A stretch of DNA of 20,000 nt from an uncultured virus (IMG/VR IMGVR_UViG_3300035698_015449) (taxonomy: Duplodnaviria; Heunggongvirae; Uroviricota; Caudoviricetes): IMG/VR virus record IMGVR_UViG_3300035698_015449; one strand, written 5' to 3'. The notes below the pieces were generated by a model that ran no database searches, was not told where the DNA came from, and saw nothing but the letters and a program-made list of their open reading frames with translations. Positions 1,659 through 18,256 of the stretch are shown piece by piece. The position numbers and the translations under genes were made by a program. Numbering within the stretch: position 1 is the first letter of the stretch; each line of letters begins with the position of its first letter.

Positions 1659-2297
1659 TTAGACATCACCAAAAAGGTCGTCATCTTCATCATCAAAGAT
1701 GCTGTCTAATTCGGCCTTTTTAACATCGGGTTCGGTCTTTTCGACCTTTTCCTCGACTTTAGTTTCTACTGCTTCAGCTTTCTCAGCCTCTTCAGTCACA
1801 TCATCAGCATTTTCAAGCCTTTCTGACTTCGGCATTTCAGCCTCTTCAAAAAGGTCTTCCTCTTCCTCAGCAGGTACAACAGGAGCAGGTACAACAGGAG
1901 CCTCTACTTTGGTCTCCACAACTACTTCTGCCAAATTCTTAGCGTTAGTGTCTTTGTTGTCTTTTTGCTCTGCCGCATTACGAAGGTTCTCGTTAGCTGC
2001 CTTGTTCGCTATATTGGGAACAGGGCCATTCTCAAGCCATTCGGGGATTGCTTTTTGAATCGCTTCTTCAATTTCCTGAGCCGACTCAACACCCTTGCCA
2101 AGCTTCTCAGGAATGGCTTTCATGCTGCGAATCATGCTTGCAAGTAAGTCATCTCTTAAAGAGTCTTCCTTTGTGATCAGATCTTCTTGACCTTCATATT
2201 CAATTTGTTCTTCAGCGTACTTTGTCAACTCAATATGCTGATAGTTACCAACATTAATACGTAAACTAATACACTCTGCTATTTTTCGGTTTGCCAT
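1659..2297 (-). CDS. Hypothetical protein with a long acidic C-terminal tail
   Basis: Start reassigned to ATG 2297 (MANRKIAEC), preceded by AGGAG; ends ...SIFDDEDDDLFGDV. Confidence 0.75.
   Translation of the reverse strand: MANRKIAECISLRINVGNYQHIELTKYAEEQIEYEGQEDLITKEDSLRDDLLASMIRSMKAIPEKLGKGVESAQEIEEAIQKAIPEWLENGPVPNIANKAANENLRNAAEQKDNKDTNAKNLAEVVVETKVEAPVVPAPVVPAEEEEDLFEEAEMPKSERLENADDVTEEAEKAEAVETKVEEKVEKTEPDVKKAELDSIFDDEDDDLFGDV
1869..1901. repeat. In-frame 15-bp tandem duplication (encodes APVVPAPVVPA)
   Basis: agcaggtacaacagg twice, plus agc. Confidence 0.9.
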
Positions 2298-2334
2298 ATC
2301 TCGCTCCTGTTTTTTATTGTCAATCTCTGGAGAC

Positions 2335-2342
2335 ATTATACA
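2335..2342 (-). promoter_or_regulatory. Sigma70-type -10 element (TGTATAAT)
   Basis: Lies just downstream of the last dnaE piece and about 40 nt upstream of ATG 2297; no good -35. Confidence 0.45.
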
Positions 2343-2352
2343 TTAAACTCCG

Positions 2353-3063
2353 TTAGATTTTAATTCCTTTCCCGCCTAGTTTGGAAAAGATATTGTTTCC
2401 ACCGTACTGCTCCATTCTCTCGTCTTGTTTCTTCTTCTGTTTTTTCTCTTTGTCAACAAGAGCCTTCACTGTAGTATATTTATCCAACAAAGTCTCTTTA
2501 CCAATCTTCCAACTCTCCTGCATACAATCAGCTTCAACCAAAGATTTAAACACTTTGCTATGAACCTTTCTTGTGTCAACTGTATGTAAGAAGTCTCTCA
2601 AGTCCGCAAACGGTTGATTATCTACAATACTCTGAACAGCTTTTTCTCCTACGCCACCAATAATCGTCAAAGGTGTCCTTATTCCATCCCTCTCTTTGCC
2701 CGATTTATCATCAACGAATGTAGCTATTTTATATTTAGTACCGCTTTTGTTAATACATGGCCCGTTAATAATAAGCCCCATACGTCTTGATTCGCTCTGA
2801 TAGGACTCAAGCTTAATCCCCTTATCGCTGTTATTGATCTCAGACGACAAAAGATTACACATGTACTCTAAAGGATAGTAAACTTTGAGCCAAGCCGTTT
2901 GATAAGCCAACATAGCATAAGCTGCGCTGTGAGAGTTTTTCGTGTAAAGCCCTCTGCCGCAAGGACTTATGATTTTGTAATTATGTTGCTCGCCTGCCAT
3001 AGTCACGTTATATGTTGTTTGCTTCCCTAATGACCTAATAGATTTTACTCTGCACTTTTTCAT
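2353..3063 (-). CDS. dnaE: DNA polymerase III alpha, piece 3 of 3: split-intein C half (43 aa) plus C-terminal extein (fingers/HhH region)
   Basis: MKKCRVKSIRSLGKQTTYNVTM..QHNY..LYTKN, then SHSAAYAMLAYQTAWLKVYYPLEYM (DnaE motif), PCINKS and IGGVGEKAV (HhH). RBS AAGGAG lies inside the upstream HEG. Confidence 0.95.
   Translation of the reverse strand: MKKCRVKSIRSLGKQTTYNVTMAGEQHNYKIISPCGRGLYTKNSHSAAYAMLAYQTAWLKVYYPLEYMCNLLSSEINNSDKGIKLESYQSESRRMGLIINGPCINKSGTKYKIATFVDDKSGKERDGIRTPLTIIGGVGEKAVQSIVDNQPFADLRDFLHTVDTRKVHSKVFKSLVEADCMQESWKIGKETLLDKYTTVKALVDKEKKQKKKQDERMEQYGGNNIFSKLGGKGIKI
2935..3063 (-). mobile_element. Split intein 2, C-terminal half (IntC2)
   Basis: Basic N-terminus, block F-like TYNVTM..HNY, terminal Asn followed by a Ser nucleophile; penultimate residue is Lys. 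Confidence 0.9.
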
Positions 3064-4150
3064 ATTTTCTCCTTAAATAAAAATCGTTCTTATCATTATA
3101 CATCCAACAAAACGCTTTGCAAATCTGTTTCTCCCCTCCAAGAGTTCTTAGATTATAGATATATCCTGTTTTTGTTTTTTGTCCCGTTACCGACCAAACA
3201 AACTGGTTTATGCTTGTCAAGTCAGTCAAGAAATCTTTACTAGCTGAAGTAAGAGATAGCCAAGGATATCCATTCTTCTTTAAACCAACCGTTCCATCCC
3301 CATCAATAAGTCCCCTGAAAAATGAACTTAAAAACTCATCAGGAACACATCCATTATACCTCAATATCTTCGTCTTACGCTTTACTACTCCTAACTTTTT
3401 TAAATCTTCTGCAATCTTTCGGTTATGAACGGTTAAACGTATCATATCTTTAGCGTTTGAAAATCCAACTTTAGTTCTTTTATGCGAACAGTCTATCTTT
3501 TGAACAGGATGCGTTTTAGATGCGCCTATAAGATCCCCTATCTTTTCAAGTATATATCCGTCTTCTTCTGTTAGTTGTATTTCAAATCCATTATAGTCTT
3601 TGATAATATTACCATCTGTCATTATCAGACCAAGAACGTATGCTTTTTCGTGACTATTAATTTTCTCAAAAAATGATTCATCGTAATGAGTTTGTATCTT
3701 TGGTTCTCTTCGTTCAATTCCATATTTATCTAGGATTTGATATACGGTTTCCTTCCTCTTGTATCCTATTGAATCAACTATCTGCTTTCCTGTTCTACCT
3801 TTTTCATAAAGTTGTATTACTTTTTGTTCTAATTGATCTGACCGCTTACTATTCCATGCTACTCGTTTCGCTTGCTTTACTTTGTATTTCTTCCTTATGC
3901 GGCAAAGGCCATAGTAATTCACGCCCGTTTGTTCTGAGACTTTGCATAAAGAAAGCCCCTTTGTATACGAGATATGGCACAGCATTTGATAATACCGCTC
4001 TCTTACCGCTTGCCAATTGTTTTCCTGAATCACTCTCCGTATTACTCGCTCCGTTAAATCCGTTTGGCGTTCTATCTCCTTCATTTCCTTTTTTTGGAAG
4101 AACAATTTGCGGATCTTCTTTTGTAATTGTTTCGGTATCGGTTGTTTCAT
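3035..4150 (-). CDS. Free-standing LAGLIDADG homing endonuclease with N-terminal HTH-like repeats (HEG1)
   Basis: Two motifs, AYVLGLIMTDG and FFRGLIDGDG; C-terminal LRRKY; GGGAGG RBS. Confidence 0.9.
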   Translation of the reverse strand: MKQPIPKQLQKKIRKLFFQKKEMKEIERQTDLTERVIRRVIQENNWQAVRERYYQMLCHISYTKGLSLCKVSEQTGVNYYGLCRIRKKYKVKQAKRVAWNSKRSDQLEQKVIQLYEKGRTGKQIVDSIGYKRKETVYQILDKYGIERREPKIQTHYDESFFEKINSHEKAYVLGLIMTDGNIIKDYNGFEIQLTEEDGYILEKIGDLIGASKTHPVQKIDCSHKRTKVGFSNAKDMIRLTVHNRKIAEDLKKLGVVKRKTKILRYNGCVPDEFLSSFFRGLIDGDGTVGLKKNGYPWLSLTSASKDFLTDLTSINQFVWSVTGQKTKTGYIYNLRTLGGEKQICKAFCWMYNDKNDFYLRRKYEKVQSKIY

Positions 4151-4619
4151 TTTCGGCCTCCCATATTTTATGCTGCTGCTTATGGGATACTTCTGTAAGA
4201 TACTGCGAATCTCCTTCTAATTTTATGATTTTATTTTTTAGTTCATTATTACGATTACCTATCATATACCCCACCAATACAGAAAAAATACATGTAATAA
4301 AAACAGATATGATTTTTATTTTTATTTCACTCCATATTACATCATCCATGTGAAGTTTTTTGTTATCTAGATTGCATTGTTGAATTTCTATATTGTCTCC
4401 CTCTATACTCCCATGATTCGCATACGTTTGAGCATTCTCACTTACACTTTCAGCGCCATATGACACAGCAGTAGATAAATCTTTTTCTCGATCAATAAAT
4501 GGTTCGGTAGGGTAATCAATAAATTTTACGAAAAGGAATTTTAATGGGTTGTTGAACCTTGTCCCAAATTTATCTTTAGGATAACTAATATATTTCATCA
4601 AGAACGGCTTAATCTTCAT
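3849..4619 (-). CDS. Putative membrane-anchored hypothetical protein; last ~100 codons overlap HEG1 in another frame
   Basis: ATG 4619 with GGAG RBS overlaps the end of dnaE piece 2; hydrophobic segment IISVFITCIFSVLVGYMIG; fills the otherwise empty 4150-4609 gap. Confidence 0.5.
   Translation of the reverse strand: MKIKPFLMKYISYPKDKFGTRFNNPLKFLFVKFIDYPTEPFIDREKDLSTAVSYGAESVSENAQTYANHGSIEGDNIEIQQCNLDNKKLHMDDVIWSEIKIKIISVFITCIFSVLVGYMIGNRNNELKNKIIKLEGDSQYLTEVSHKQQHKIWEAENETTDTETITKEDPQIVLPKKGNEGDRTPNGFNGASNTESDSGKQLASGKRAVLSNAVPYLVYKGAFFMQSLRTNGRELLWPLPHKEEIQSKASETSSME
4159..4217 (-). promoter_or_regulatory. SigmaH-like promoter plus RBS-occluding hairpin for HEG1
   Basis: GAAGGA-N18-GAAGTA; stem TCCCATA (4187-4181) / TATGGGA (4165-4159) overlaps GGGAGG. 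Confidence 0.75.
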
Positions 4620-4956
4620 ACAAAATCTCCAATTCTTCATGCACAATGTCCTGCAAAGTATGTGCTTCCCCGTCAGAACAAATAAACTTATGATCCATTG
4701 TGCATTTTATCACAACACCATTATCAAGTTGAACTTCAAATAGCTCTCTCTCGCCAACTTCAAAAACATCTACCACGACATCTTCTACGATTTCCCCATC
4801 TTTAAATGACTTAAGAATTATCTCAGGTGTTTCAACTTCCTCACCCGCTCCAAATTCCTTCCATCCTTGATAATTAAAGAACCATTTCTCTAAGTCTTCT
4901 AATCTATAGACTTTCCCATCCTTTTCGTTTAGGACTTCGGTATCTCCAGAGAGACA
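4609..4956 (-). mobile_element. Split intein 2, N-terminal half (IntN2)
   Basis: Block A CLSGDTEV and block B CTMDHKF, acidic composition, followed by a stop codon. Confidence 0.93.
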
Positions 4957-6300
4957 TTTGTTGAATCCATACCCACCGAAGTATTCGATCTGTTCAAATA
5001 TCGCTTTTGCAGTTCTTTCGTCAATATCACATTCGGCCTTACAACCCTCAATGAACAGAGTGTCAAGCTTTTCTTTCTTGATCAACTCAGGTTTCTTCTT
5101 ACCCACAACCTTTCTCAACCAGTCTGCCTGACCTAGAGTAAATCCTGCGAGCTTCTGTACAACCTTCATGATGTTCTCTTGGAAAACCATGATCCCGTAA
5201 GTCTCATCCAAAACCTCTCCCATCTTAGGATGCAAATATTCGATTTTCTTACGGCCATGCTTGTAGTCACTGTAAAGGTCGTGAACTCCTGCACCTAATG
5301 GGCCGGGACGATACAAAGCATTACATACAACCAAATCATTGAACGTATCAACATGGATGTTCTTTAACAATTTAGAGATGCCATGAGCTTCAAACTGGAA
5401 TATACCCCTATTGTCCATATTTTTGTATTTACCATTAAATAAATCAAATACCTTAGGATCATCAGGCTCAAGTACATCAACGTCTATATACGTCCCGTAA
5501 CGGCTCTTAATCATCTGAACAGTATCCTCTATTACCGTCAGAGTCTTCAAAGCCAACATATCGAACTTGAGCAAACCAAGATCATCAACCTCTTCCATGA
5601 CAAACTGAGAGCAGATAGCGCCCTTAGACTCCCTCAAAGGAATGTGGTTTACAACAGGCTCTTTACAAATAATGATGCCAGCAGGATGCACTCCCGCAGA
5701 TGATACAGTGTTCTCAACATGTCTTGTCGTATCGAGTAACTTAGGGTTCTTTAACATCTCTCTTCTGAATGACTCATCCTCTTTAAGTGCTTGTTCAATG
5801 GTCATGCCGGGACTATTGGGGATTTGTTTGGCAATGAAGTCCGCCATATCCAAACTCCTTTTTGTCATCTCAACTTTTTTATCAGGGTTACGCTTCTTAG
5901 CTGCCTGATAAGTCTCCCAATCATTACCAATATCCAACGCTTTAGCCGCATATCTAACCGCAGCCCTTGCTTTGAATTTGTTGTACGTCCCAATTTTGCA
6001 ACAATACCCCTCTCCATACTTACGAATGATGTAATCAAAGATCTCATCTCTACGATAGTAATCAAAGTCAATATCTACATCAGGGGGACTTACACGCTCA
6101 GGGTTGATGAATCTTTCAAAAAGTAAACCGTACTTAATTGGGTCAAGTTTCGTAATACCTAGAACATACAAACACAAACTGCCTGCTCCAGAATTATGAA
6201 CTGACAACCCATCTATATTGTATGCGCTCAAATCCTTAACGGTAAGATCATGAACTTTTCCTTCATACTTAGTCTTTTTGATGCTTTTTATTTTAGCCAT
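4609..6300 (-). CDS. dnaE: DNA polymerase III alpha, piece 2 of 3: IntC1 (36 aa) + catalytic palm/thumb/fingers + IntN2 (115 aa)
   Basis: ...GLSVHN|SGAGSLCLYVLGIT, LLFERFINPERVSPPDVDIDF (catalytic Asp residues), HPAGIII, LLKFDML, GIFQFE, LYRPGP, ETYGIMVFQE, GYGFNK|CLSGDTEV...KCTMDHKF. Confidence 0.97.
   Translation of the reverse strand: MAKIKSIKKTKYEGKVHDLTVKDLSAYNIDGLSVHNSGAGSLCLYVLGITKLDPIKYGLLFERFINPERVSPPDVDIDFDYYRRDEIFDYIIRKYGEGYCCKIGTYNKFKARAAVRYAAKALDIGNDWETYQAAKKRNPDKKVEMTKRSLDMADFIAKQIPNSPGMTIEQALKEDESFRREMLKNPKLLDTTRHVENTVSSAGVHPAGIIICKEPVVNHIPLRESKGAICSQFVMEEVDDLGLLKFDMLALKTLTVIEDTVQMIKSRYGTYIDVDVLEPDDPKVFDLFNGKYKNMDNRGIFQFEAHGISKLLKNIHVDTFNDLVVCNALYRPGPLGAGVHDLYSDYKHGRKKIEYLHPKMGEVLDETYGIMVFQENIMKVVQKLAGFTLGQADWLRKVVGKKKPELIKKEKLDTLFIEGCKAECDIDERTAKAIFEQIEYFGGYGFNKCLSGDTEVLNEKDGKVYRLEDLEKWFFNYQGWKEFGAGEEVETPEIILKSFKDGEIVEDVVVDVFEVGERELFEVQLDNGVVIKCTMDHKFICSDGEAHTLQDIVHEELEILYED
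6193..6300 (-). mobile_element. Split intein 1, C-terminal half (IntC1)
   Basis: MAKIKSIKKTKYEGKVHDLTVKD..AYNIDGLSVHN followed by Ser; canonical His-Asn end. Confidence 0.95.
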
Positions 6301-7232
6301 GCCTTAATCCTCTTCTTTATTGCGTCAGTTTTTTCATTATTGTAAAATGTTATTTCAGAATAATATCTTTTATAAAATGGTTTAAGATAAGTTTCTCTTT
6401 TTACAAATATACCTAAATCAAACAAATCCTGAAATCCATATACAACATACATTATACCAAACTCCTTTCTTGCTGCTTTAAATTTTTCATGGAAGTTGTT
6501 ATACTCCTTCGACCCTTTAATTTCAACGATTCTTTTTTTATCATTGCTATAGGTAACTATGAAATCAGGATAATACTGCCGTTTTTTACCTTTATCGTCT
6601 TTATAAGCAATACTCCCCTTATATCTTTCAATCTTTTTTATACTCTTAGAGTCCCAACAAAAACATAGAAAATACAATTCCCAACTACTATCAAATCTGA
6701 TACCTCGTATTGTACCGCTTATAAAAGATTTTGAACATCTTTTTTCTGCATACATCGGATCGGATTTCATTAATTTCAGTTGGGCATCTCTTTGCTTTTT
6801 TAAAACCTCCGGTCTATTTTGCGCTATCAATTGAGCTTTTGAATTACTATCCTTCCATTTGTCAGTATTTGTAGCAAACTTTAGGGAACATTTTTTACAG
6901 ATAGGTTTGGTTCCACAAATCTTCCTTTTTTGCATAGCTAAAATCTGCATAACACTATCTTTGCCACATTCTTGACATTTAAATTTTACTTTCTTTTTAG
7001 TTTTTAAAGAATTTATACAAGGTTGTACTAATTTATAATCCCAATATTCATCATTTAGCTTATCCTGCAACTCAACCGGATAGTAATCAACTCCGTATTT
7101 TCCGCCCCTACTATATTTTTTGTAGCATTTCGGACAAATTGGCTCTGAAGTTTTTTCCCTTCTTCTTTTTAAACATCCTCTTTGAATTTTAAAATCATTA
7201 CCACAATCCTGACATTTCATTCTAACACTCAT
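6288..7232 (-). CDS. Free-standing putative homing endonuclease: CxxC zinc-binding repeats plus TnsA-N-like PD-(D/E)xK nuclease (HEG2)
   Basis: CQDC, CPKC, CQEC, CKKC; C-terminal FDSSWE...YYPDFIV...IVEIKG; sits between the halves of split intein 1. Confidence 0.8.
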   Translation of the reverse strand: MSVRMKCQDCGNDFKIQRGCLKRRREKTSEPICPKCYKKYSRGGKYGVDYYPVELQDKLNDEYWDYKLVQPCINSLKTKKKVKFKCQECGKDSVMQILAMQKRKICGTKPICKKCSLKFATNTDKWKDSNSKAQLIAQNRPEVLKKQRDAQLKLMKSDPMYAEKRCSKSFISGTIRGIRFDSSWELYFLCFCWDSKSIKKIERYKGSIAYKDDKGKKRQYYPDFIVTYSNDKKRIVEIKGSKEYNNFHEKFKAARKEFGIMYVVYGFQDLFDLGIFVKRETYLKPFYKRYYSEITFYNNEKTDAIKKRIKAWLK

Positions 7233-7235
7233 AAA

Positions 7236-7290
7236 ATAACCTCCTTAACTTTATTAGGTTATATTCTTGATGAATGCCAAAACCTCCTCC
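7236..7290 (-). promoter_or_regulatory. SigmaH-like promoter plus RBS-occluding hairpin for HEG2
   Basis: GGAGGA-N18-GAATAT; stem ATAACCT (7262-7256) / AGGTTAT (7242-7236) overlaps AAGGAGGT. Confidence 0.75.
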
Positions 7291-7317
7291 TTTAAACTCC
7301 AACTCGTACAACCAACC

Positions 7318-7611
7318 TCAAACGACTCCCTCTCTAATATCAAATATTTCATCATCAGTAGTTAGTTTTCCTGCTTCAACCCATATAAGGTCTCCTTTGC
7401 GATCAATATGAATCTTATGATCGCTTGTGCATGAAAACCGCCTTCCGTCTTCTAACTCTATTTCTATTAATTCCTCATCTACATCATATTCTAAAACATT
7501 TAAAACATCATGATACTTTCCATCATAAGATAAAACTTTATCATTTATACAAACATCTTTAATATTTTTTATTCCGTCCTTACACTCAACCTTAGACTCT
7601 GGTGTAAAACA
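7318..7611 (-). mobile_element. Split intein 1, N-terminal half (IntN1)
   Basis: Block A CFTPESKV, block B CTSDHKI, WVEAGKLTTDD, then a stop codon. Confidence 0.95.
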
Positions 7612-8715
7612 CCCCCTACCAACACCAACTCGAATTCCTTGCTGATTAGCGTAGTTAATAATATCCCAAAGCGTAAGGAAGTATTTGACAAACCCACAAC
7701 CAATAATCAAGCTCATCTCCATCTTGATACGTTCTCTGTATTCAGGTTTATCTAGAAACCCCTTCAATTGCATCCCGTCTTTCACTAAAGCCTTAAGATA
7801 CATGTCACCGCTAGTAAACCCTTGTGGAACCTTGAAAGTAGGCAACAGGTCTTCAGATGGTGTTAATATCGCTCCCTTCTCTACCTTTTCTGCAATCTCA
7901 ACCGTATTGCTCATCATTTCGGGAGCGCTCTTGTACAACTCTTGCATCTCTTCATACGGCTTAAGGTAGAATTCATTTCCGTTGAAAGTGAAACGTTTAG
8001 GATTTTTTATATGGTTATGGGTTTGCATGGCAAGCATGACATCATGATACGGCGCATCAGTTCGGTTGGCATAATGAGCGTCATTGGTACAAACGGTTTT
8101 GATGTCGAGCTTCTTAGCCAACATATACATTTGCTTGGCTAGTTTTCGTTCACGGTCTTCTTGATCCTTGGATGCCTCAAAATATTTGTGCATCATGATC
8201 TCAATGTAAAAATCGTCCCCGAATAACTCTTTATGCTCATTTGCAAAAGTAATAGCCCCGCTCTCATCGCCCTGCCATAGCTTTGCAGGGAACTCTCCTA
8301 TGCAACAAGCGCTTAGACAGATCAAGCCCTCATGATACTTCTTAAGTAATTCAAAATCAATTCTAGGCTTTCTATACTTACCTTCAATCTCGGCAATGGT
8401 TGAAAGCTGCATTAGGTTCTTAACCCCGGTTCGGTTCTTAGCTAAAAGCACCAAATGGTATCTTGGATCTTTGGGATCTCTAGATTTGTGGTCAGGACAA
8501 GTGTAAACTTCATTGCCCAATATTGGCTTAACGTCTTTAGCTAAACAAGTCTTCTGAAAGTTATACCATCCCCCGCAAGTTCCGTGATCTGTTATTGCTA
8601 AGGAATGAGAACCATTAGCTATACAGGCATCTACCATTTCCGTTGGTGATGAAAGCCCGTCTAATGCGCTGTAGTAACTATGATTGTGTAAATTAACGAA
8701 TCTGTCTTCTGTCAT
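7318..8715 (-). CDS. dnaE: DNA polymerase III alpha, piece 1 of 3: PHP domain plus IntN1 (97 aa)
   Basis: FVNLHNHSYYSALDG, AITDHG, PILGNE, YHLVLLAKN, KPRID, LSAC, TNDAHY, ...GIRVGVGRG|CFTPESKV...SCTSDHKI. Confidence 0.97.
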   Translation of the reverse strand: MTEDRFVNLHNHSYYSALDGLSSPTEMVDACIANGSHSLAITDHGTCGGWYNFQKTCLAKDVKPILGNEVYTCPDHKSRDPKDPRYHLVLLAKNRTGVKNLMQLSTIAEIEGKYRKPRIDFELLKKYHEGLICLSACCIGEFPAKLWQGDESGAITFANEHKELFGDDFYIEIMMHKYFEASKDQEDRERKLAKQMYMLAKKLDIKTVCTNDAHYANRTDAPYHDVMLAMQTHNHIKNPKRFTFNGNEFYLKPYEEMQELYKSAPEMMSNTVEIAEKVEKGAILTPSEDLLPTFKVPQGFTSGDMYLKALVKDGMQLKGFLDKPEYRERIKMEMSLIIGCGFVKYFLTLWDIINYANQQGIRVGVGRGCFTPESKVECKDGIKNIKDVCINDKVLSYDGKYHDVLNVLEYDVDEELIEIELEDGRRFSCTSDHKIHIDRKGDLIWVEAGKLTTDDEIFDIREGVV

Positions 8716-9884: not shown

Positions 9885-10694
9885 CTAATGATAAAGATTT
9901 TTGTACTTTTGCCTTTTACGATCCATATATATTGTGGAATCTTCATACATCCAATTTAATATCTTATAAGCATTTTTTCCGCTATAACCTATGTGTCCCG
10001 CTTTAAAGTGTTTATTTGCTATATATGGGGCATATTTATTTTTAGATTTTAATTTTATATGAAGCTCCTGTACCCAATATTGTGAAACTGGATCTAACAA
10101 ATCGTATTCTCCTGCTATACTTATTAGGCAAACATGATTTTTTGGGACAGTTACACACCCATCTCCATCAAATAATCCTCGAATGAAATGCCTATGGTAT
10201 AACTTTGGGATTAAAGTTAGTGGATGAATCTCAACTTTTTTCCCCCTGCATAATCCAAAATTAGATTTGAGGTCATTTATAAACCAAGAACCACAAATAT
10301 CTACAGACACATATTTTGGGTAGCTTTCATCACGATGGGCATGACGATATTCCCCCACTTCTCTATCACATTTTATGCAATTAAGAAATTTTTTCAAATG
10401 TAATTTATCAACCGAACTTATTTTTATATGAACAATATCTCGATCCTTTCTGATATGTCCATCTGCCCATAAAAACCCCGCCCAATAGCAGCTTTCTTCT
10501 GTAAAGGCATTAAAAAAGTCCACATTATACTCATAGTGTGGACTTCCCTTTCTAATAGAAATATTACTACGCTTAATAATCCGTTGAATTGTTGAGCGAT
10601 GAACATTAAATCTTTTCGACAATTCTCCAGTTCCTATGCCTTTTCCATATAGTTCTAATATTTTATCGCACACTTCATTTTTTATTCTTTTCAT
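9885..10694 (-). CDS. Free-standing LAGLIDADG homing endonuclease with N-terminal HTH (HEG3)
   Basis: CYWAGFLWADG and FIRGLFDGDG; start reassigned to ATG 10694 (MKRIKNEV) after GGAGG. Confidence 0.9.
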   Translation of the reverse strand: MKRIKNEVCDKILELYGKGIGTGELSKRFNVHRSTIQRIIKRSNISIRKGSPHYEYNVDFFNAFTEESCYWAGFLWADGHIRKDRDIVHIKISSVDKLHLKKFLNCIKCDREVGEYRHAHRDESYPKYVSVDICGSWFINDLKSNFGLCRGKKVEIHPLTLIPKLYHRHFIRGLFDGDGCVTVPKNHVCLISIAGEYDLLDPVSQYWVQELHIKLKSKNKYAPYIANKHFKAGHIGYSGKNAYKILNWMYEDSTIYMDRKRQKYKNLYH

Positions 10695-10695
10695 C

Positions 10696-10745
10696 TTACA
10701 TCCTCCAATACCATGTAATTCAACATTTGGAAGATGCATTCCTTT
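10696..10745 (-). promoter_or_regulatory. SigmaH-like promoter plus hairpin enclosing the RBS of HEG3
   Basis: AAAGGA-N18-GAATTA; stem TTACAT (10718-10713) / ATGTAA (10701-10696) with GGAGG in the loop. Confidence 0.7.
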
Positions 10746-11531: not shown

Positions 11532-12341
11532 TTATCTCCAATACTTCTCTTTTAACTGATATTTTCCATTATAATTTTGTTTCCTTTTACCGTTCGTCCT
11601 ATCGGTAAACTGCCTGCCACAACCTGAACATAAATATTTCTGCTCTCCTCTTATTTTTCCATTTTTACTTATTTCGTATCCTTTACAAAAGGCACATGGA
11701 GGTAAAGCGGGAATAGAACTAAATAGTCTATACTTAGGATCTCTCCATATATCAGCCTTTCTTTGCAAAGGGAAGCCTAGATCTATAGCTTTTAAAAACT
11801 TCCTACAATCATCGGTTCTTATCAGTCGAATTGTTGGAAAAGAGTCGTCTAAATACATTTTGAAATCAACTTTGTATAAACGATTTAGTGACTCTACTAA
11901 AAACTCAACCTCATTTATTGAAAAGCCTTGTGTCGCCAACTTAACATCAAATCTTAACTGATTTAGTTTGTCCTTTGGAGGGATTACACATCCATCATCT
12001 GCCATCCAAACCTGAACCGTCTCGTTGTTGAGTTTCAAATCATTAGGTACTTCTTTTATCCCATTACAATACCACTTATCGTGACATTCTGTAAATATTG
12101 CACTACATCTACTTCTCAAACATATCTGATAATAAGTTTTACCCGTCCTTTTATCAAATGTCTTCTTTTTATAGACCCCTTTTGGCGTGATATACTCTTT
12201 TAATAATTTAGCACTCCACACTAAATAATCTTCATCAGTTATAACTCTGTTTATCTTCAAACTAGCATTATAACTTAACTTTCTACGCTCTAAGTATCCA
12301 TCACCTAACATTAATCCGTTTAATAAATTTTCTATCTTCAT
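11532..12341 (-). CDS. Free-standing LAGLIDADG endonuclease with C-terminal zinc ribbon (HEG4)
   Basis: GLMLGDGYL, WMADDG, LATQGFS; C-terminal CAFC..KNG...QKYLCSGCGRQF. Confidence 0.88.
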   Translation of the reverse strand: MKIENLLNGLMLGDGYLERRKLSYNASLKINRVITDEDYLVWSAKLLKEYITPKGVYKKKTFDKRTGKTYYQICLRSRCSAIFTECHDKWYCNGIKEVPNDLKLNNETVQVWMADDGCVIPPKDKLNQLRFDVKLATQGFSINEVEFLVESLNRLYKVDFKMYLDDSFPTIRLIRTDDCRKFLKAIDLGFPLQRKADIWRDPKYRLFSSIPALPPCAFCKGYEISKNGKIRGEQKYLCSGCGRQFTDRTNGKRKQNYNGKYQLKEKYWR

Positions 12342-15754: not shown

Positions 15755-16081
15755 CTATATTTTGGGGAGGTTGTCCCACCATGTTACACCAGAGTCAGGA
15801 ACAGAAGTGTAACCCCAATATGTGTTCCCCTCTTCTGTTGGGACTGCCGCTACCAACCATCCAATAGTATGTTCACTTAATAAGTCAGGTACTTCTTTAT
15901 TCTGATCGGACATAGCACATGCTCGACAACGTAAATGTTGGTAATCGAGGAAAGTGTTGTATTCTCTGTATAGTCTGACACCTGTTGCGCCACAATCTTT
16001 ACAGAAATAACCTTCGGGAGATTCCATTTCTGAGTAAGAGAATGGAGTACAAATGTTTCCCCATGCTAATTCGGTCATCAT
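15755..16081 (-). CDS. Hypothetical protein with two CxxC motifs
   Basis: CKDC and CRAC, Trp-rich C-terminus; AAAGGA RBS. Confidence 0.7.
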   Translation of the reverse strand: MMTELAWGNICTPFSYSEMESPEGYFCKDCGATGVRLYREYNTFLDYQHLRCRACAMSDQNKEVPDLLSEHTIGWLVAAVPTEEGNTYWGYTSVPDSGVTWWDNLPKI

Positions 16082-16113
16082 TCCTTTCTATGCTTTACAA
16101 CTATTTTATAAAG

Positions 16114-16476
16114 TGGTGGAAGCGGGGGGGTTCGAACCCCCGTGTTGTACGAGAATTAACATAATCTCATTCACATGCTTAGTTGATTGATTAAGGATCT
16201 AACAACAAATCCTTCTCAGTTCTTGTCCTGAGTTGCAAACTGTCTTGCCAGCTTGTCAGGTTTCTAAAGGCTTTCACCACTTGCCACCTTGTAAATGACG
16301 TTACTAGGGGTTACTAAGACTATCTCACCCTGTTCTCGGGTTGCTTTATTTAAGCAGCCATTGCTAAACGTGTTTCGCCGTTTATTGCGTTTTCATGGAA
16401 TATTAAAGAGGCCAACCATGATCCTCTGCATGCGACTATATCTATTCATTCGCCAATCGATACCAAATTCGCTCCC
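16114..16476 (-). ncRNA. ssrA: tmRNA (363 nt), tag peptide (A)GETRLAMAA
   Basis: Acceptor stem GGGAGCG/CGCTTCC with G3:U, discriminator A and encoded CCA; T arm GGGGG-TTCGAAC-CCCCC; pk1 stems AGAGG/CCTCT and TCATGG/CCATGA; ATAAAC then GGC GAA ACA CGT TTA GCA ATG GCT GCT TAA (16379-16350). Confidence 0.95.
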
Positions 16477-17216
16477 TTTTTTATTTTACTGGGTTTTTCA
16501 GCCCATTCCTTTAGTTTATCCAATTTGTATTTATAGCAAACCGGCCATTTAAAATTAAGCAATCCTTCTGCAATTTTTGACTTATTGGTAACATTACTTT
16601 TTATATATATGCTATGATCTTTGGTAATAGTGGCAGTTAATCCGTAATTCCCCAATTTCTTAATTAATATTTCCAAAGAGGATTTGTCAAATCCCATCGT
16701 GCATATCTTGAAACTTCCCCGTTCTATATTCCCATCGCCCAACAACCAGTGCGACAAAACCTCATCGTCTATTTCCAATTCATCAGGAACATGCTTTTTA
16801 CCATTAATATACCATTTTTTTCTTAGTCCCTTAAAATTTGAACGAGTCGCCAGAAGAGTTCTATCATAATAGTTACCAGTTCTTTTTTCAAGCCTGTGAT
16901 CATCCCACAAATTAACGTGAATCCCCAATTTACCAAATTTACTTTTTAAAAAATCGGCGTATTCTCTATATTTGGTGGTATGTGCGTACTTCCCTCCTAA
17001 TCCAATAGACCCATCTCCCAATAATTCTCCAATAATCCAATTTGGGGTTTTTTCACATTGTTTAGCCTTAATCCTATTCCTTTTTAGATTTAAAGATTCA
17101 GATTTTTTTTGTATAGATTTCCAAGTTCTTTCAGGAAATAATTTAAGAACATCACTCTTTTTGAATTCTCCCCACACCTTACATAAAAGATCAGTTTGAC
17201 GCCCATCCCATTTCAT
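16446..17216 (-). CDS. Free-standing LAGLIDADG endonuclease with N-terminal Myb/HTH-like region (HEG5); overlaps the tmRNA 5' end
   Basis: WIIGELLGDGSI, HWLLGDG, ICTMGF; last 31 nt lie inside the tmRNA. Confidence 0.88.
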   Translation of the reverse strand: MKWDGRQTDLLCKVWGEFKKSDVLKLFPERTWKSIQKKSESLNLKRNRIKAKQCEKTPNWIIGELLGDGSIGLGGKYAHTTKYREYADFLKSKFGKLGIHVNLWDDHRLEKRTGNYYDRTLLATRSNFKGLRKKWYINGKKHVPDELEIDDEVLSHWLLGDGNIERGSFKICTMGFDKSSLEILIKKLGNYGLTATITKDHSIYIKSNVTNKSKIAEGLLNFKWPVCYKYKLDKLKEWAEKPSKIKKGANLVSIGE

Positions 17217-17218
17217 AC

Positions 17219-17268
17219 TACCCCCATTTTTGGAGATAACATTCTTTCAAAAACGTTTATTATCCTTC
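17219..17268 (-). promoter_or_regulatory. SigmaH-like promoter plus RBS-occluding hairpin for HEG5
   Basis: GAAGGA-N18-GAATGT; stem TATCTCCA-AAAA-TGGGGGTA (two G:U pairs) burying the GGGGG RBS. Confidence 0.72.
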
Positions 17269-17279
17269 TTTTTCTTTGA

Positions 17280-17300
17280 AATCGATACCTTTGCGTCCCC
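17280..17300 (-). pseudogene. Orphan tmRNA 5'-end fragment (GGGGACGCAAAGGTATCGATT)
   Basis: Typical tmRNA 5' sequence; shares GGTATCGATT with the intact copy (16464-16455); begins 13 nt after a -10 box. Confidence 0.75.
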
Positions 17301-17313
17301 ATTTGTTACTAAT

Positions 17314-17342
17314 ACTATACCAGAAAACAGTCCTAGAATCAA
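17314..17342 (-). promoter_or_regulatory. Sigma70-type promoter for the tmRNA locus
   Basis: TTGATT-N17-TATAGT with an extended TGn. Confidence 0.75.
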
Positions 17343-17351
17343 GTACATTCT

Positions 17352-17819
17352 TTACCCCTTACTGTTTCCGAAAAACTTCTTTACGTAAGTGCTTAAACCA
17401 AAGACCCTTACGCCACAATAATATGTTCTCGCCAATTTAAAATCTGATCGCTTTAACACATCATAAAACATTCTGTCTGTGAATTTCCTAACTCTGTATA
17501 GGCTAATCCCTGAATCTTCATGCGTTTTACACAAATACTGATACACGTAGTCATGTAGGAGTGAAGCGTTAAGCGTATCAGTGTAACGATATTCGCTCGT
17601 CAATATCTTAGGCATCCATATTTTAGGTTCAATCGTCTTCCCTTGCCATACGTTGCCCGAACATCCATCCCAAGCATATCCTTTGCCCAAGAGAATTTCA
17701 TCTTTAGTGATTATGCCTCGTTCAGTAACCAATCTTTTAACGTGCTTCAAGAGAGGGGAACAATCATAAGCATAACTGAAATCCTCTCTAAGAATGTATT
17801 TGTAAACTCCTTTTTTCAT
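17352..17819 (-). CDS. DUF1353-like protein
   Basis: GYAWDGCSG...ASLLHDYVYQ...TDRMFYDVL...YYCGVRVFG pattern. Confidence 0.7.
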   Translation of the reverse strand: MKKGVYKYILREDFSYAYDCSPLLKHVKRLVTERGIITKDEILLGKGYAWDGCSGNVWQGKTIEPKIWMPKILTSEYRYTDTLNASLLHDYVYQYLCKTHEDSGISLYRVRKFTDRMFYDVLKRSDFKLARTYYCGVRVFGLSTYVKKFFGNSKG

Positions 17820-17825
17820 ACAGTG

Positions 17826-17855
17826 TAGTTCAAAAAGAGAAAAATAGATTCCTGC
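17826..17855 (-). promoter_or_regulatory. Sixth sigmaH-like promoter, probably giving a leaderless mRNA
   Basis: GCAGGA-N18-GAACTA; the A of the ATG is the 7th nt after the hexamer; no SD sequence. Confidence 0.65.
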
Positions 17856-18256
17856 TACACTTTCTCCAAAGGTTCCTTTTCGTATTCAACCTTAGAGACT
17901 TCAAACCCATGTTTTTTAGCCAAGCGTCTCAGGTCTTTAATCTCTTTAGCTTTTACCTGTTTCTTCCGTTTCTCTTTCATGCGCTTTTGATACTCTTTAT
18001 CACGTTTTTCTGTAAGGAACTCTCGGTCAGTCATGGGCCTTCTCCCCGTAATGAATGCTTGACGGGAATCACTATACCAGCTCCTACCTGTATCGGGAAC
18101 ATATGGATGAAACTCAATATCCTTCCACCCTGCATCTTTCAACGTTTCTATCTGACCCTGAACTCTAGCCGCAGAGTCCATCCTCCCCATGCCAAGTTCA
18201 TCTGTTACGTATTTTTTTCTTGCCATAACCATACTCCTTCTCTTGAACTTCGCCAT
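17855..18256 (-). CDS. Hypothetical basic protein
   Basis: 133-aa ORF; the real start may be a downstream ATG after AAGGAG. Confidence 0.65.
   Translation of the reverse strand: MAKFKRRSMVMARKKYVTDELGMGRMDSAARVQGQIETLKDAGWKDIEFHPYVPDTGRSWYSDSRQAFITGRRPMTDREFLTEKRDKEYQKRMKEKRKKQVKAKEIKDLRRLAKKHGFEVSKVEYEKEPLEKV

Follow-up and report, generated by a model that had tools for sequence, protein, structure and literature searches.

The 20,000-nucleotide stretch of DNA analysed here (the window) comes from an uncultured virus of the Caudoviricetes (IMG/VR IMGVR_UViG_3300035698_015449) and carries a gene for a LAGLIDADG homing endonuclease lodged, without an intron, at the 5' end of a transfer-messenger RNA (tmRNA) gene. 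A duplicated segment of the tmRNA 5' end flanks the nuclease gene, and the tmRNA gene itself is kept intact. Our analysis of homologous loci revealed that the LAGLIDADG subfamily to which this nuclease belongs is tied to tmRNA starts. We consider it highly probable that the arrangement is a cassette targeting tmRNA starts, whichever of the two copies of the 5' end is the newcomer. With fair confidence, we further propose that the window holds one copy of a mobile cassette whose specialised target is the 5' boundary of tmRNA genes in phages, and that the extra, non-working copy (the relic) was carried in with it.

Along the minus strand, on which all elements of the locus lie, a promoter-like site is followed by 13 nt, a 21-nt relic, a 63-nt spacer, a 256-codon open reading frame (ORF) and the tmRNA. 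The latter is an intact one-piece tmRNA with an encoded ACCA end (16114-16476); it was detected by ARAGORN and, at 16476-16114, by the Rfam model RF00023, which it matches over the full model (1-374) with 82 bits against a gathering threshold of 47. It displays the standard features of one-piece tmRNA, namely a tRNA-like domain, a G3:U acceptor pair, a CCA end and a tag ORF, for which ARAGORN gives GETRLAMAA* (16379-16350). The nuclease ORF (16446-17216; 256 residues, ending KGANLVSIGE*) overlaps the tmRNA by 31 nt (16446-16476), that is, by its last 10 codons and its stop, a TGA at tmRNA position +29. The relic (17280-17300) reads GGGGACG CAAA GGTATCGATT, and GGTATCGATT has just two exact copies in the window (16455-16464 and 17280-17289); tolerating a single mismatch raises the number of matches to 5 versus 1.25 expected, a number reached in 2 of 200 shuffles. 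The working acceptor strand GGGAGCG forms six Watson-Crick pairs and the G3:U pair with CGCTTCC, whereas the relic would add one further G:U and an A-C mismatch. Clean pairing of the relic is obtained with tmRNAs of the CGTCTCC type, such as those of phages L013 and L143. The sigma-70-like site (TTGATT-N17-TATAGT with a TG extension, 17314-17342) agrees with 9 of 12 consensus bases, a match that by itself is at chance level (7 sites in the window versus 6.0 expected); promoters of a similar kind lie upstream of the tmRNA in the related phages L128, L119 and L154. It probably drives the relic, the nuclease gene and the tmRNA as one transcript.

A position weight matrix (PWM) built from the 5' ends of 10 other phage tmRNAs ranked the relic first in the window, at 26.1 bits, a score inflated by the fact that two of the training ends came from a pattern containing GGTATCGA. 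The working end followed with 22.6 bits and the next site with 16.6. The relic score had p=0.002 in 500 dinucleotide shuffles, and the highest of 49 controls was 11.8 bits. Direct alignment of the relic with the window's own working end was marginal (p=0.04). Among viral sequences, the exact relic pattern gave one match, a chance one inside a coding region, and the exact tmRNA 3' end gave none. A pattern containing GGTATCGA returned 15 loci, three of them with a tmRNA according to ARAGORN. Another pattern returned 45 loci; Rfam identified a tmRNA in each of the eight examined with it, in one case a permuted one, and the remaining 37 were screened by ARAGORN alone. A permuted tmRNA was seen in the viral contig L124 (2501-2665, minus strand).

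Regarding the mode of insertion, neither a group I intron nor any other Rfam family exceeded its threshold within 15900-17900. Intron models applied at E<=10 gave no match at the locus, and the T-loop is uninterrupted, with no group I ribozyme core in it. A profile search found no Hint domain in the nuclease ORF, which is thus neither intron- nor intein-borne. The initial annotation of the window had placed promoter, relic, nuclease and tmRNA as described above; it had also reported the segment duplicated on both sides, the clean pairing of the downstream copy only and the intron-less lodging of the gene, and these observations held, the last of them strengthened by the recurrence of the layout in homologs.

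The nuclease matches the LAGLIDADG_2 profile (E 3.4e-16; 60.1 bits against a curated cut-off of 25), as do all 25 members of the subfamily alignment. Its fold is predicted with a pLDDT of 93.3, dropping to 69 and 56 in the last two blocks, and the best Foldseek matches of the model are I-WcaI (E 8.4e-10) and I-SceI (E 1.5e-9). The protein is a monomeric, free-standing enzyme with a three-helix N-terminal domain (residues 1-48), two motifs with D68 and D161, and then W238; the three named residues are invariant in the 25 aligned members. I-SceI and I-WcaI, which are intron-encoded in yeast mitochondria, have the fold and both catalytic aspartates in common with it. However, they are only about 21% identical to it, and the three-helix domain is an addition of the phage subfamily. 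In 2 of the 25 members this domain weakly matches Myb/SANT, and it is also present in other open frames of 376-397 residues in the related phages (G001:C1:93028-93183 and 156211-156354; G006:C1:2379-2522).

The subfamily comprises 26 representatives at E<=1e-30, compared with 143 at 1e-10, and the next protein down the list scores 96 bits against 124 for the 26th. In the tree it forms one side of a branch opposite four outgroup rows (support 91/96, not starred); the tree is mostly unresolved, with 5 of 31 branches starred, and the order of events cannot be recovered from it. No close relatives of the nuclease were found in IMG/VR (three distant loci), GTDB genomes (two distant) or GenBank phages (three records, 28-31% identity), and sequence look-ups returned nothing resembling this subfamily. 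Since 16 of 28 subfamily proteins stop within four residues of W238, the 18-residue low-confidence tail of the window nuclease is best read as read-through into the leader and the tmRNA.

The association with tmRNA starts comes from a metagenome homolog scan, in which 80 of the 190 confirmed loci were listed. The top eight among those listed were subfamily members with 38-47% identity, and six of them had DNA past the stop, L026 and L027 ending inside the gene. In five of the six (L020, L022, L023, L024 and L025) a tmRNA on the same strand starts within 60 nt of the nuclease stop or overlaps it; in the sixth, L021, the tmRNA is divergent and lies 89 nt before the ATG. By comparison, a tmRNA was found at none of 20 distant LAGLIDADG loci, many of them short. 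The corresponding Fisher test (5/6 versus 0/20) gave p=9e-5, a value overstated because the loci are related. Default ARAGORN overlooked five of the six tmRNAs of the close homologs, so that blanks from this program are weak. The genes flanking the tmRNA vary among loci and the tmRNA is the only common neighbour. The neighbours are of phage type, with a tail tube gene in L020 and, in L023 and L025, genes common to IMG/VR genomes of 219-548 kb. As separate observations, the divergent nuclease and intact tmRNA of L021 (384-1601) may represent an inverted or displaced cassette; the tmRNA of L020 (950-1469) is unusually long, at 520 nt, with insertions past the resume region; a second endonuclease-like gene adjoins the tail tube gene of that locus (2865-3794); and one of the 20 distant loci, L050, has a tRNA-Pro 8 nt past the stop of its LAGLIDADG gene (2860-3704).

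Relics recur in the homologs as well. Upstream DNA is present at six homolog loci, four of which (L020, L022, L024 and L027) have PWM scores of 13.2-14.7 bits, with shuffle p values of 0.008-0.018 and all above the 49 controls, and in several lineages the relic is located 55-104 nt before the ATG. In L020 the duplication includes the locus's own leader and 5' end (p=0.0005; 54-column alignment, lying approximately 105 nt ahead of the ATG). The L022 relic is preceded by the leader GTTCTTTAAAAA, which also stands before the tmRNA in the nuclease-free L119 and L106 and which we take to resemble boxA. The acceptor bases of the relic agree with the local tmRNA type in L020 (7/7) and in L024 (6/7). 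A second G-rich stretch of L027 was considered as a relic and rejected, being a hairpin arm. The TCGA core is altered in four of five relics (L020, L022, L024 and L027), a feature that may reflect half-sites selected for immunity and that decay would explain equally well.

The DNA following the relic is also informative. The part of the window spacer containing AAAAAGAAGGATA (17261-17279) is homologous to the spacer 3' of the L022 relic (p=0.001), and L022 is homologous to L024 in the same region (p=0.003); of the ten spacer pairs compared, the remaining eight did not reach significance (L022 versus L027, p=0.054). Because of these two homologies, relic, spacer and gene appear to travel together. 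Furthermore, a 12-bp hairpin in the window (17215-17242; -9.9 kcal/mol, z -2.7) spans the GGGGG ribosome-binding site and reaches two bases into the start codon, and 3 of 200 shuffles were as good. It is a likely translational damper. Two homologs, L022 (z -5.9) and L027 (z -5.8), have strong hairpins over or abutting the ribosome-binding site, and those of L024 and L020 are weak.

Which of the two copies is native to the window phage was addressed through nuclease-free relatives. The window belongs to a large phage-like genome with DnaE, Thg1, thymidylate kinase, uracil-DNA glycosylase and a PHROGs tail-chaperone match, whose DnaE is at most 40% identical to that of named phages. Two syntenic relatives were found in IMG/VR: G001 (L128/L153), with 71% DnaE identity and 11 of 26 tested window ORFs matched in order, and L154, with 69% DnaE identity, 10 of 26 ORFs and a tmRNA 72% identical over its length. 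A full-length subfamily gene was absent from the syntenic relatives, where only matches to the N-terminal domain were obtained (G001 being 82% complete and G006 15% complete). No nuclease precedes the tmRNA in G001/L128 and L154, nor in L106, L119, L143 and L145 (relatives of L023/L025), and its presence is thus optional; the nuclease-free record G002, a complete genome, had no subfamily match.

The tmRNA of L128 starts GGGAGCG, with the 3' strand CGCTTCC (working end of the window 7/7, relic 5/7), and that of L154 starts GGGAGTG, with CACTTCC (working end 6/7, relic 4/7); L154 also has TCGATTGGC in common with the window's working end. GGGGACG is the working acceptor strand in L013, L143 and L022. 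Since both syntenic relatives start GGGAG(C/T)G and GGGGACG serves other phages, in the window phage the working end is likely of the lineage's native type and the relic of a foreign one. The initial annotation had proposed the opposite, namely that the relic is the phage's own displaced 5' end and that a divergent, possibly cleavage-resistant working end was brought or evolved by the nuclease gene; it expected nuclease-free relatives to start GGGGACG right after the promoter, which neither syntenic relative does. This polarity, with the working end arriving along with the nuclease as a cleavage-resistant replacement, would require a change of the 3' strand too, a matching one coming in with that end, and the spacer downstream of the relic is common to L022, whose nuclease is 41% identical and which belongs to another phage family. 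Nothing indicates a resistant new end: over positions -7 to +25 the working end of L023 does not differ from its counterpart in the nuclease-free L145. (A promoter-like match of L145 to the L023 leader was rejected, as by inspection it falls within a short coding ORF.) The interpretation thus stands as regards the intron-less lodging with a duplicated 5' segment, and is unsupported as regards the polarity at this locus and the resistant end.

It should be mentioned that several observations speak for that polarity. The relic lies 13 nt past the -10 box, where a tmRNA start would be expected, and is very well preserved, as though refreshed from local alleles; the relics of L020 and L024 follow the local acceptor type; fragments from runs X3 and X4 show close relatives differing in helix 2 and the T arm; and the fungal mORFs discussed below offer a precedent (PMC3630166). 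Since the relic tracks the local type in L020 and L024, the scheme fits those loci and the founding event; for the window we regard it as doubtful. In the salt-lake metagenome runs X1-X4, short contigs identical to the window were present, none of the contigs contained a joint across the insert, and no contig reached the 5' end of a relative; gaps in this coverage carry no weight as evidence. No RNA run was listed as containing the stretch. Close relatives in these runs have mosaic tmRNAs, an X3 contig differing on both helix 2 strands and another contig in the T arm (window 16140-16165 and 16441-16457; runs X3 and X4).

The mobile cassette that we favour would consist of a stub of a tmRNA 5' end, a hairpin spacer, the nuclease gene and a working leader with its 5' end. 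Its ancestor would have entered a tmRNA gene within the initial ~20 nt, duplicating that segment, a state best kept in L020. An intron would be unnecessary because all inserted DNA becomes 5' leader, which RNase P would remove, freeing the tmRNA at 16476; RNase P is known to produce tmRNA 5' ends (PMC3985003). The nuclease would be expressed from the tmRNA promoter and damped by the hairpin at the ribosome-binding site. Spread would occur by homing during co-infection, with nuclease-free alleles cut at a site between roughly -15 and +25 relative to the tmRNA start and the cassette copied during repair, the relic side and the tmRNA body serving as homology arms. The window phage would have received the cassette sideways, relic and spacer deriving from a GGGGACG-type donor, and the relic would be the left homology arm of the cassette and not the displaced end of the window gene.

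A different explanation is that the nuclease is a passenger comparable to segB of phage T4, residing in a variable tmRNA leader and cutting elsewhere nearby, with the relic an old recombination by-product and the overlap the result of a lost stop codon. The interval between promoter and tmRNA is indeed variable, being occupied by an unannotated RNA-like stretch in G001 and by a short ORF in L154; the free-standing enzymes of T4 have cut sites located hundreds to thousands of bp away from the genes that encode them (PMC2988022); L021 and L026 have no relic; and, as noted above, 16 of 28 subfamily proteins end near W238. We nevertheless find a passenger improbable, given that the flanking genes differ by locus with the tmRNA as sole common neighbour and that several lineages have relics 55-104 nt before the ATG. 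Finally, a spliced or alternative-start form, in which the RNA would truly begin at the relic and lose the insert as an unrecognised intron, is very improbable: although GGTATCGATT forms a direct repeat at both insert ends, the L020 relic pairs cleanly with the 3' strand and introns outside the T-loop may have escaped surveys (PMC11915505), no intron model matches, the relic mispairs in the window and L024, the TCGA core is altered in the four relics named above, and a complete working 5' end lies downstream in all six cases.

A number of points weigh against the proposed cassette and its polarity. L022, L023 and L025 form one clade, so that the downstream layout is found in about four independent lineages, the window included. 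The tmRNA-adjacent members are not grouped in the tree (three changes; 46 of 500 shuffles as low), and about 20 other subfamily proteins came without genomic context. As regards the relics, many control contigs are just 1-2 kb long; L026, which has no downstream DNA, lacks a relic (6.0 bits); GGGGCTA in L021 was rejected as one (7.4 bits, p=0.16), as was the top PWM site of L020, promoter-like by inspection; and alignment of the relic with the locus's own working end was not significant in L022 (p=0.26) and L024 (p=0.16). The polarity rests on two relatives with ~70% DnaE identity, and closer alleles could differ, a contig of run X3 having a 93%-alike tmRNA body and a different helix 2.

The position of the nuclease stop deserves comment. 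It falls within the tmRNA in four of six loci, these four representing two lineages, at +29 in the window, +11 in L022 and +6 in L023 and L025, and upstream of the tmRNA start in L020 (-56) and L024 (-9). Additionally, the tail of protein P0014 back-translates to a tmRNA start with a score of 27.8, compared with maxima of 23.2 in 120 C-terminal and 25.2 in 368 internal controls; that of P0008, at 22.7, is inside the control range. In the loci with an internal stop, RNase P cleavage may strip the stop codon and leave a non-stop mRNA. Cleavage likewise turns the arfA mRNA into a non-stop message, and trans-translation then leads to degradation of the protein made from it (PMC3985003). One could speculate, although we consider it rather unlikely, that in an ArfA-like feedback the tmRNA tags the nuclease for destruction, the nuclease rising only when processing or trans-translation lags; if so, a host RNA would degrade the product of its own parasite. 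The overlap may also be incidental, since most members probably stop before +1.

Non-coding stretches upstream of the tmRNA were noted in several phages. In G001, ~240 nt between promoter and tmRNA (L128 ~2870-2650, minus strand) have complementary ends (GAGCAT...ATGCTC) and no Rfam match, and constitute a candidate unannotated RNA. A similar stretch precedes the tmRNA in two jumbo-phage records (L106 ~2180-2420, plus strand; L119 ~2880-2640, minus strand), with no Rfam match at gathering, and a comparable one precedes the L022 relic.

The window is rich in nuclease genes, five in all within 20 kb. Its dnaE (2353-8715, minus strand) is fractured into three ORFs (7318-8715, 4609-6300 and 2353-3063), with Hint/intein matches at the end of the first piece (7318-8715), and the pieces are separated by free-standing nucleases, one TnsA-like (6288-7232) and one LAGLIDADG_3 (3035-4150). 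The gene is a single ORF in G001 (978 residues) and L154 (984 residues). This organisation resembles the 'fractured genes' with split inteins that have been reported. Two further free-standing LAGLIDADG genes (9885-10739 and 11532-12341, minus strand) flank the Thg1 gene; ORFs of that size are absent beside Thg1 in G001.

In a body of literature lacking most subscription journals and supplements, no account was found of nuclease cassettes located at the 5' ends of tmRNA genes, and the available parts of PMC6221350, PMC10448965 and PMC7162821 contain nothing on such a layout. These cassettes would go unseen because gene finders report only the intact tmRNA. If the proposed mechanism is correct, it offers a selfish nuclease a route into a processed RNA gene without splicing, in which ~20-40 nt are duplicated and RNase P discards the rest, and makes the cassette a candidate driver by which large phages exchange parts of their tmRNAs. 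In addition, the subfamily comprises at least 26 I-SceI-like proteins of compact size, whose target can be predicted because it lies in a highly conserved motif, and may yield new meganucleases.

Among known systems, the closest parallels are the fungal mitochondrial mORFs (Allomyces macrogynus atp6; Glomus atp6, atp9, cox2 and nad3), in which a LAGLIDADG gene likewise sits in a host gene without an intron, a duplicated end keeps the host gene working and the other end is stranded (PMC3630166). They differ in that their target is a mitochondrial protein-coding gene whose 3' (C-terminal) end is replaced, whereas the phage target is the 5' end of a non-coding RNA, and in that rescue relies on in-frame fusion and not, as would be the case here, on RNase P trimming. 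Moreover, the working end is the foreign one in mORFs, while at the window locus the stranded copy looks foreign, as judged from distant relatives (~70% DnaE identity). The free-standing homing endonucleases of T4, such as SegB in the tRNA cluster, resemble the cassette in their structural-RNA gene neighbours, use of host-gene promoters and hairpin at the ribosome-binding site (PMC2988022). Intronless homing would be common to both; however, the T4 enzymes are of the GIY-YIG or HNH type and cut far from their genes, and the available part of that source describes no duplicated RNA-gene end. By analogy, the cassette appears to work like mORFs and segB-type genes, and its target and polarity set it apart from the mORFs proper. 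The cassette also differs from genomic islands located in tmRNA genes in having no integrase, in its size of ~0.8 kb and in occupying the 5' rather than the 3' end. It is the 3' end that islands integrating into tmRNA genes replace. Insertion into ssrA with restoration of the gene by a duplicated end is nonetheless common to both (islands mentioned in PMC11915505). The same source describes group I introns in the tmRNA T-loop that carry LAGLIDADG genes, which share with our locus the association of such a gene with tmRNA; there, however, the gene is housed in a self-splicing intron, and the insertion points are four subsites of the T-loop, close to the 3' end (23 of 844 introns), whereas the cassette has no intron and is found at the 5' end. 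To the three tmRNA gene forms listed there, none of them like the cassette in the part available, the present locus would add a fourth arrangement.

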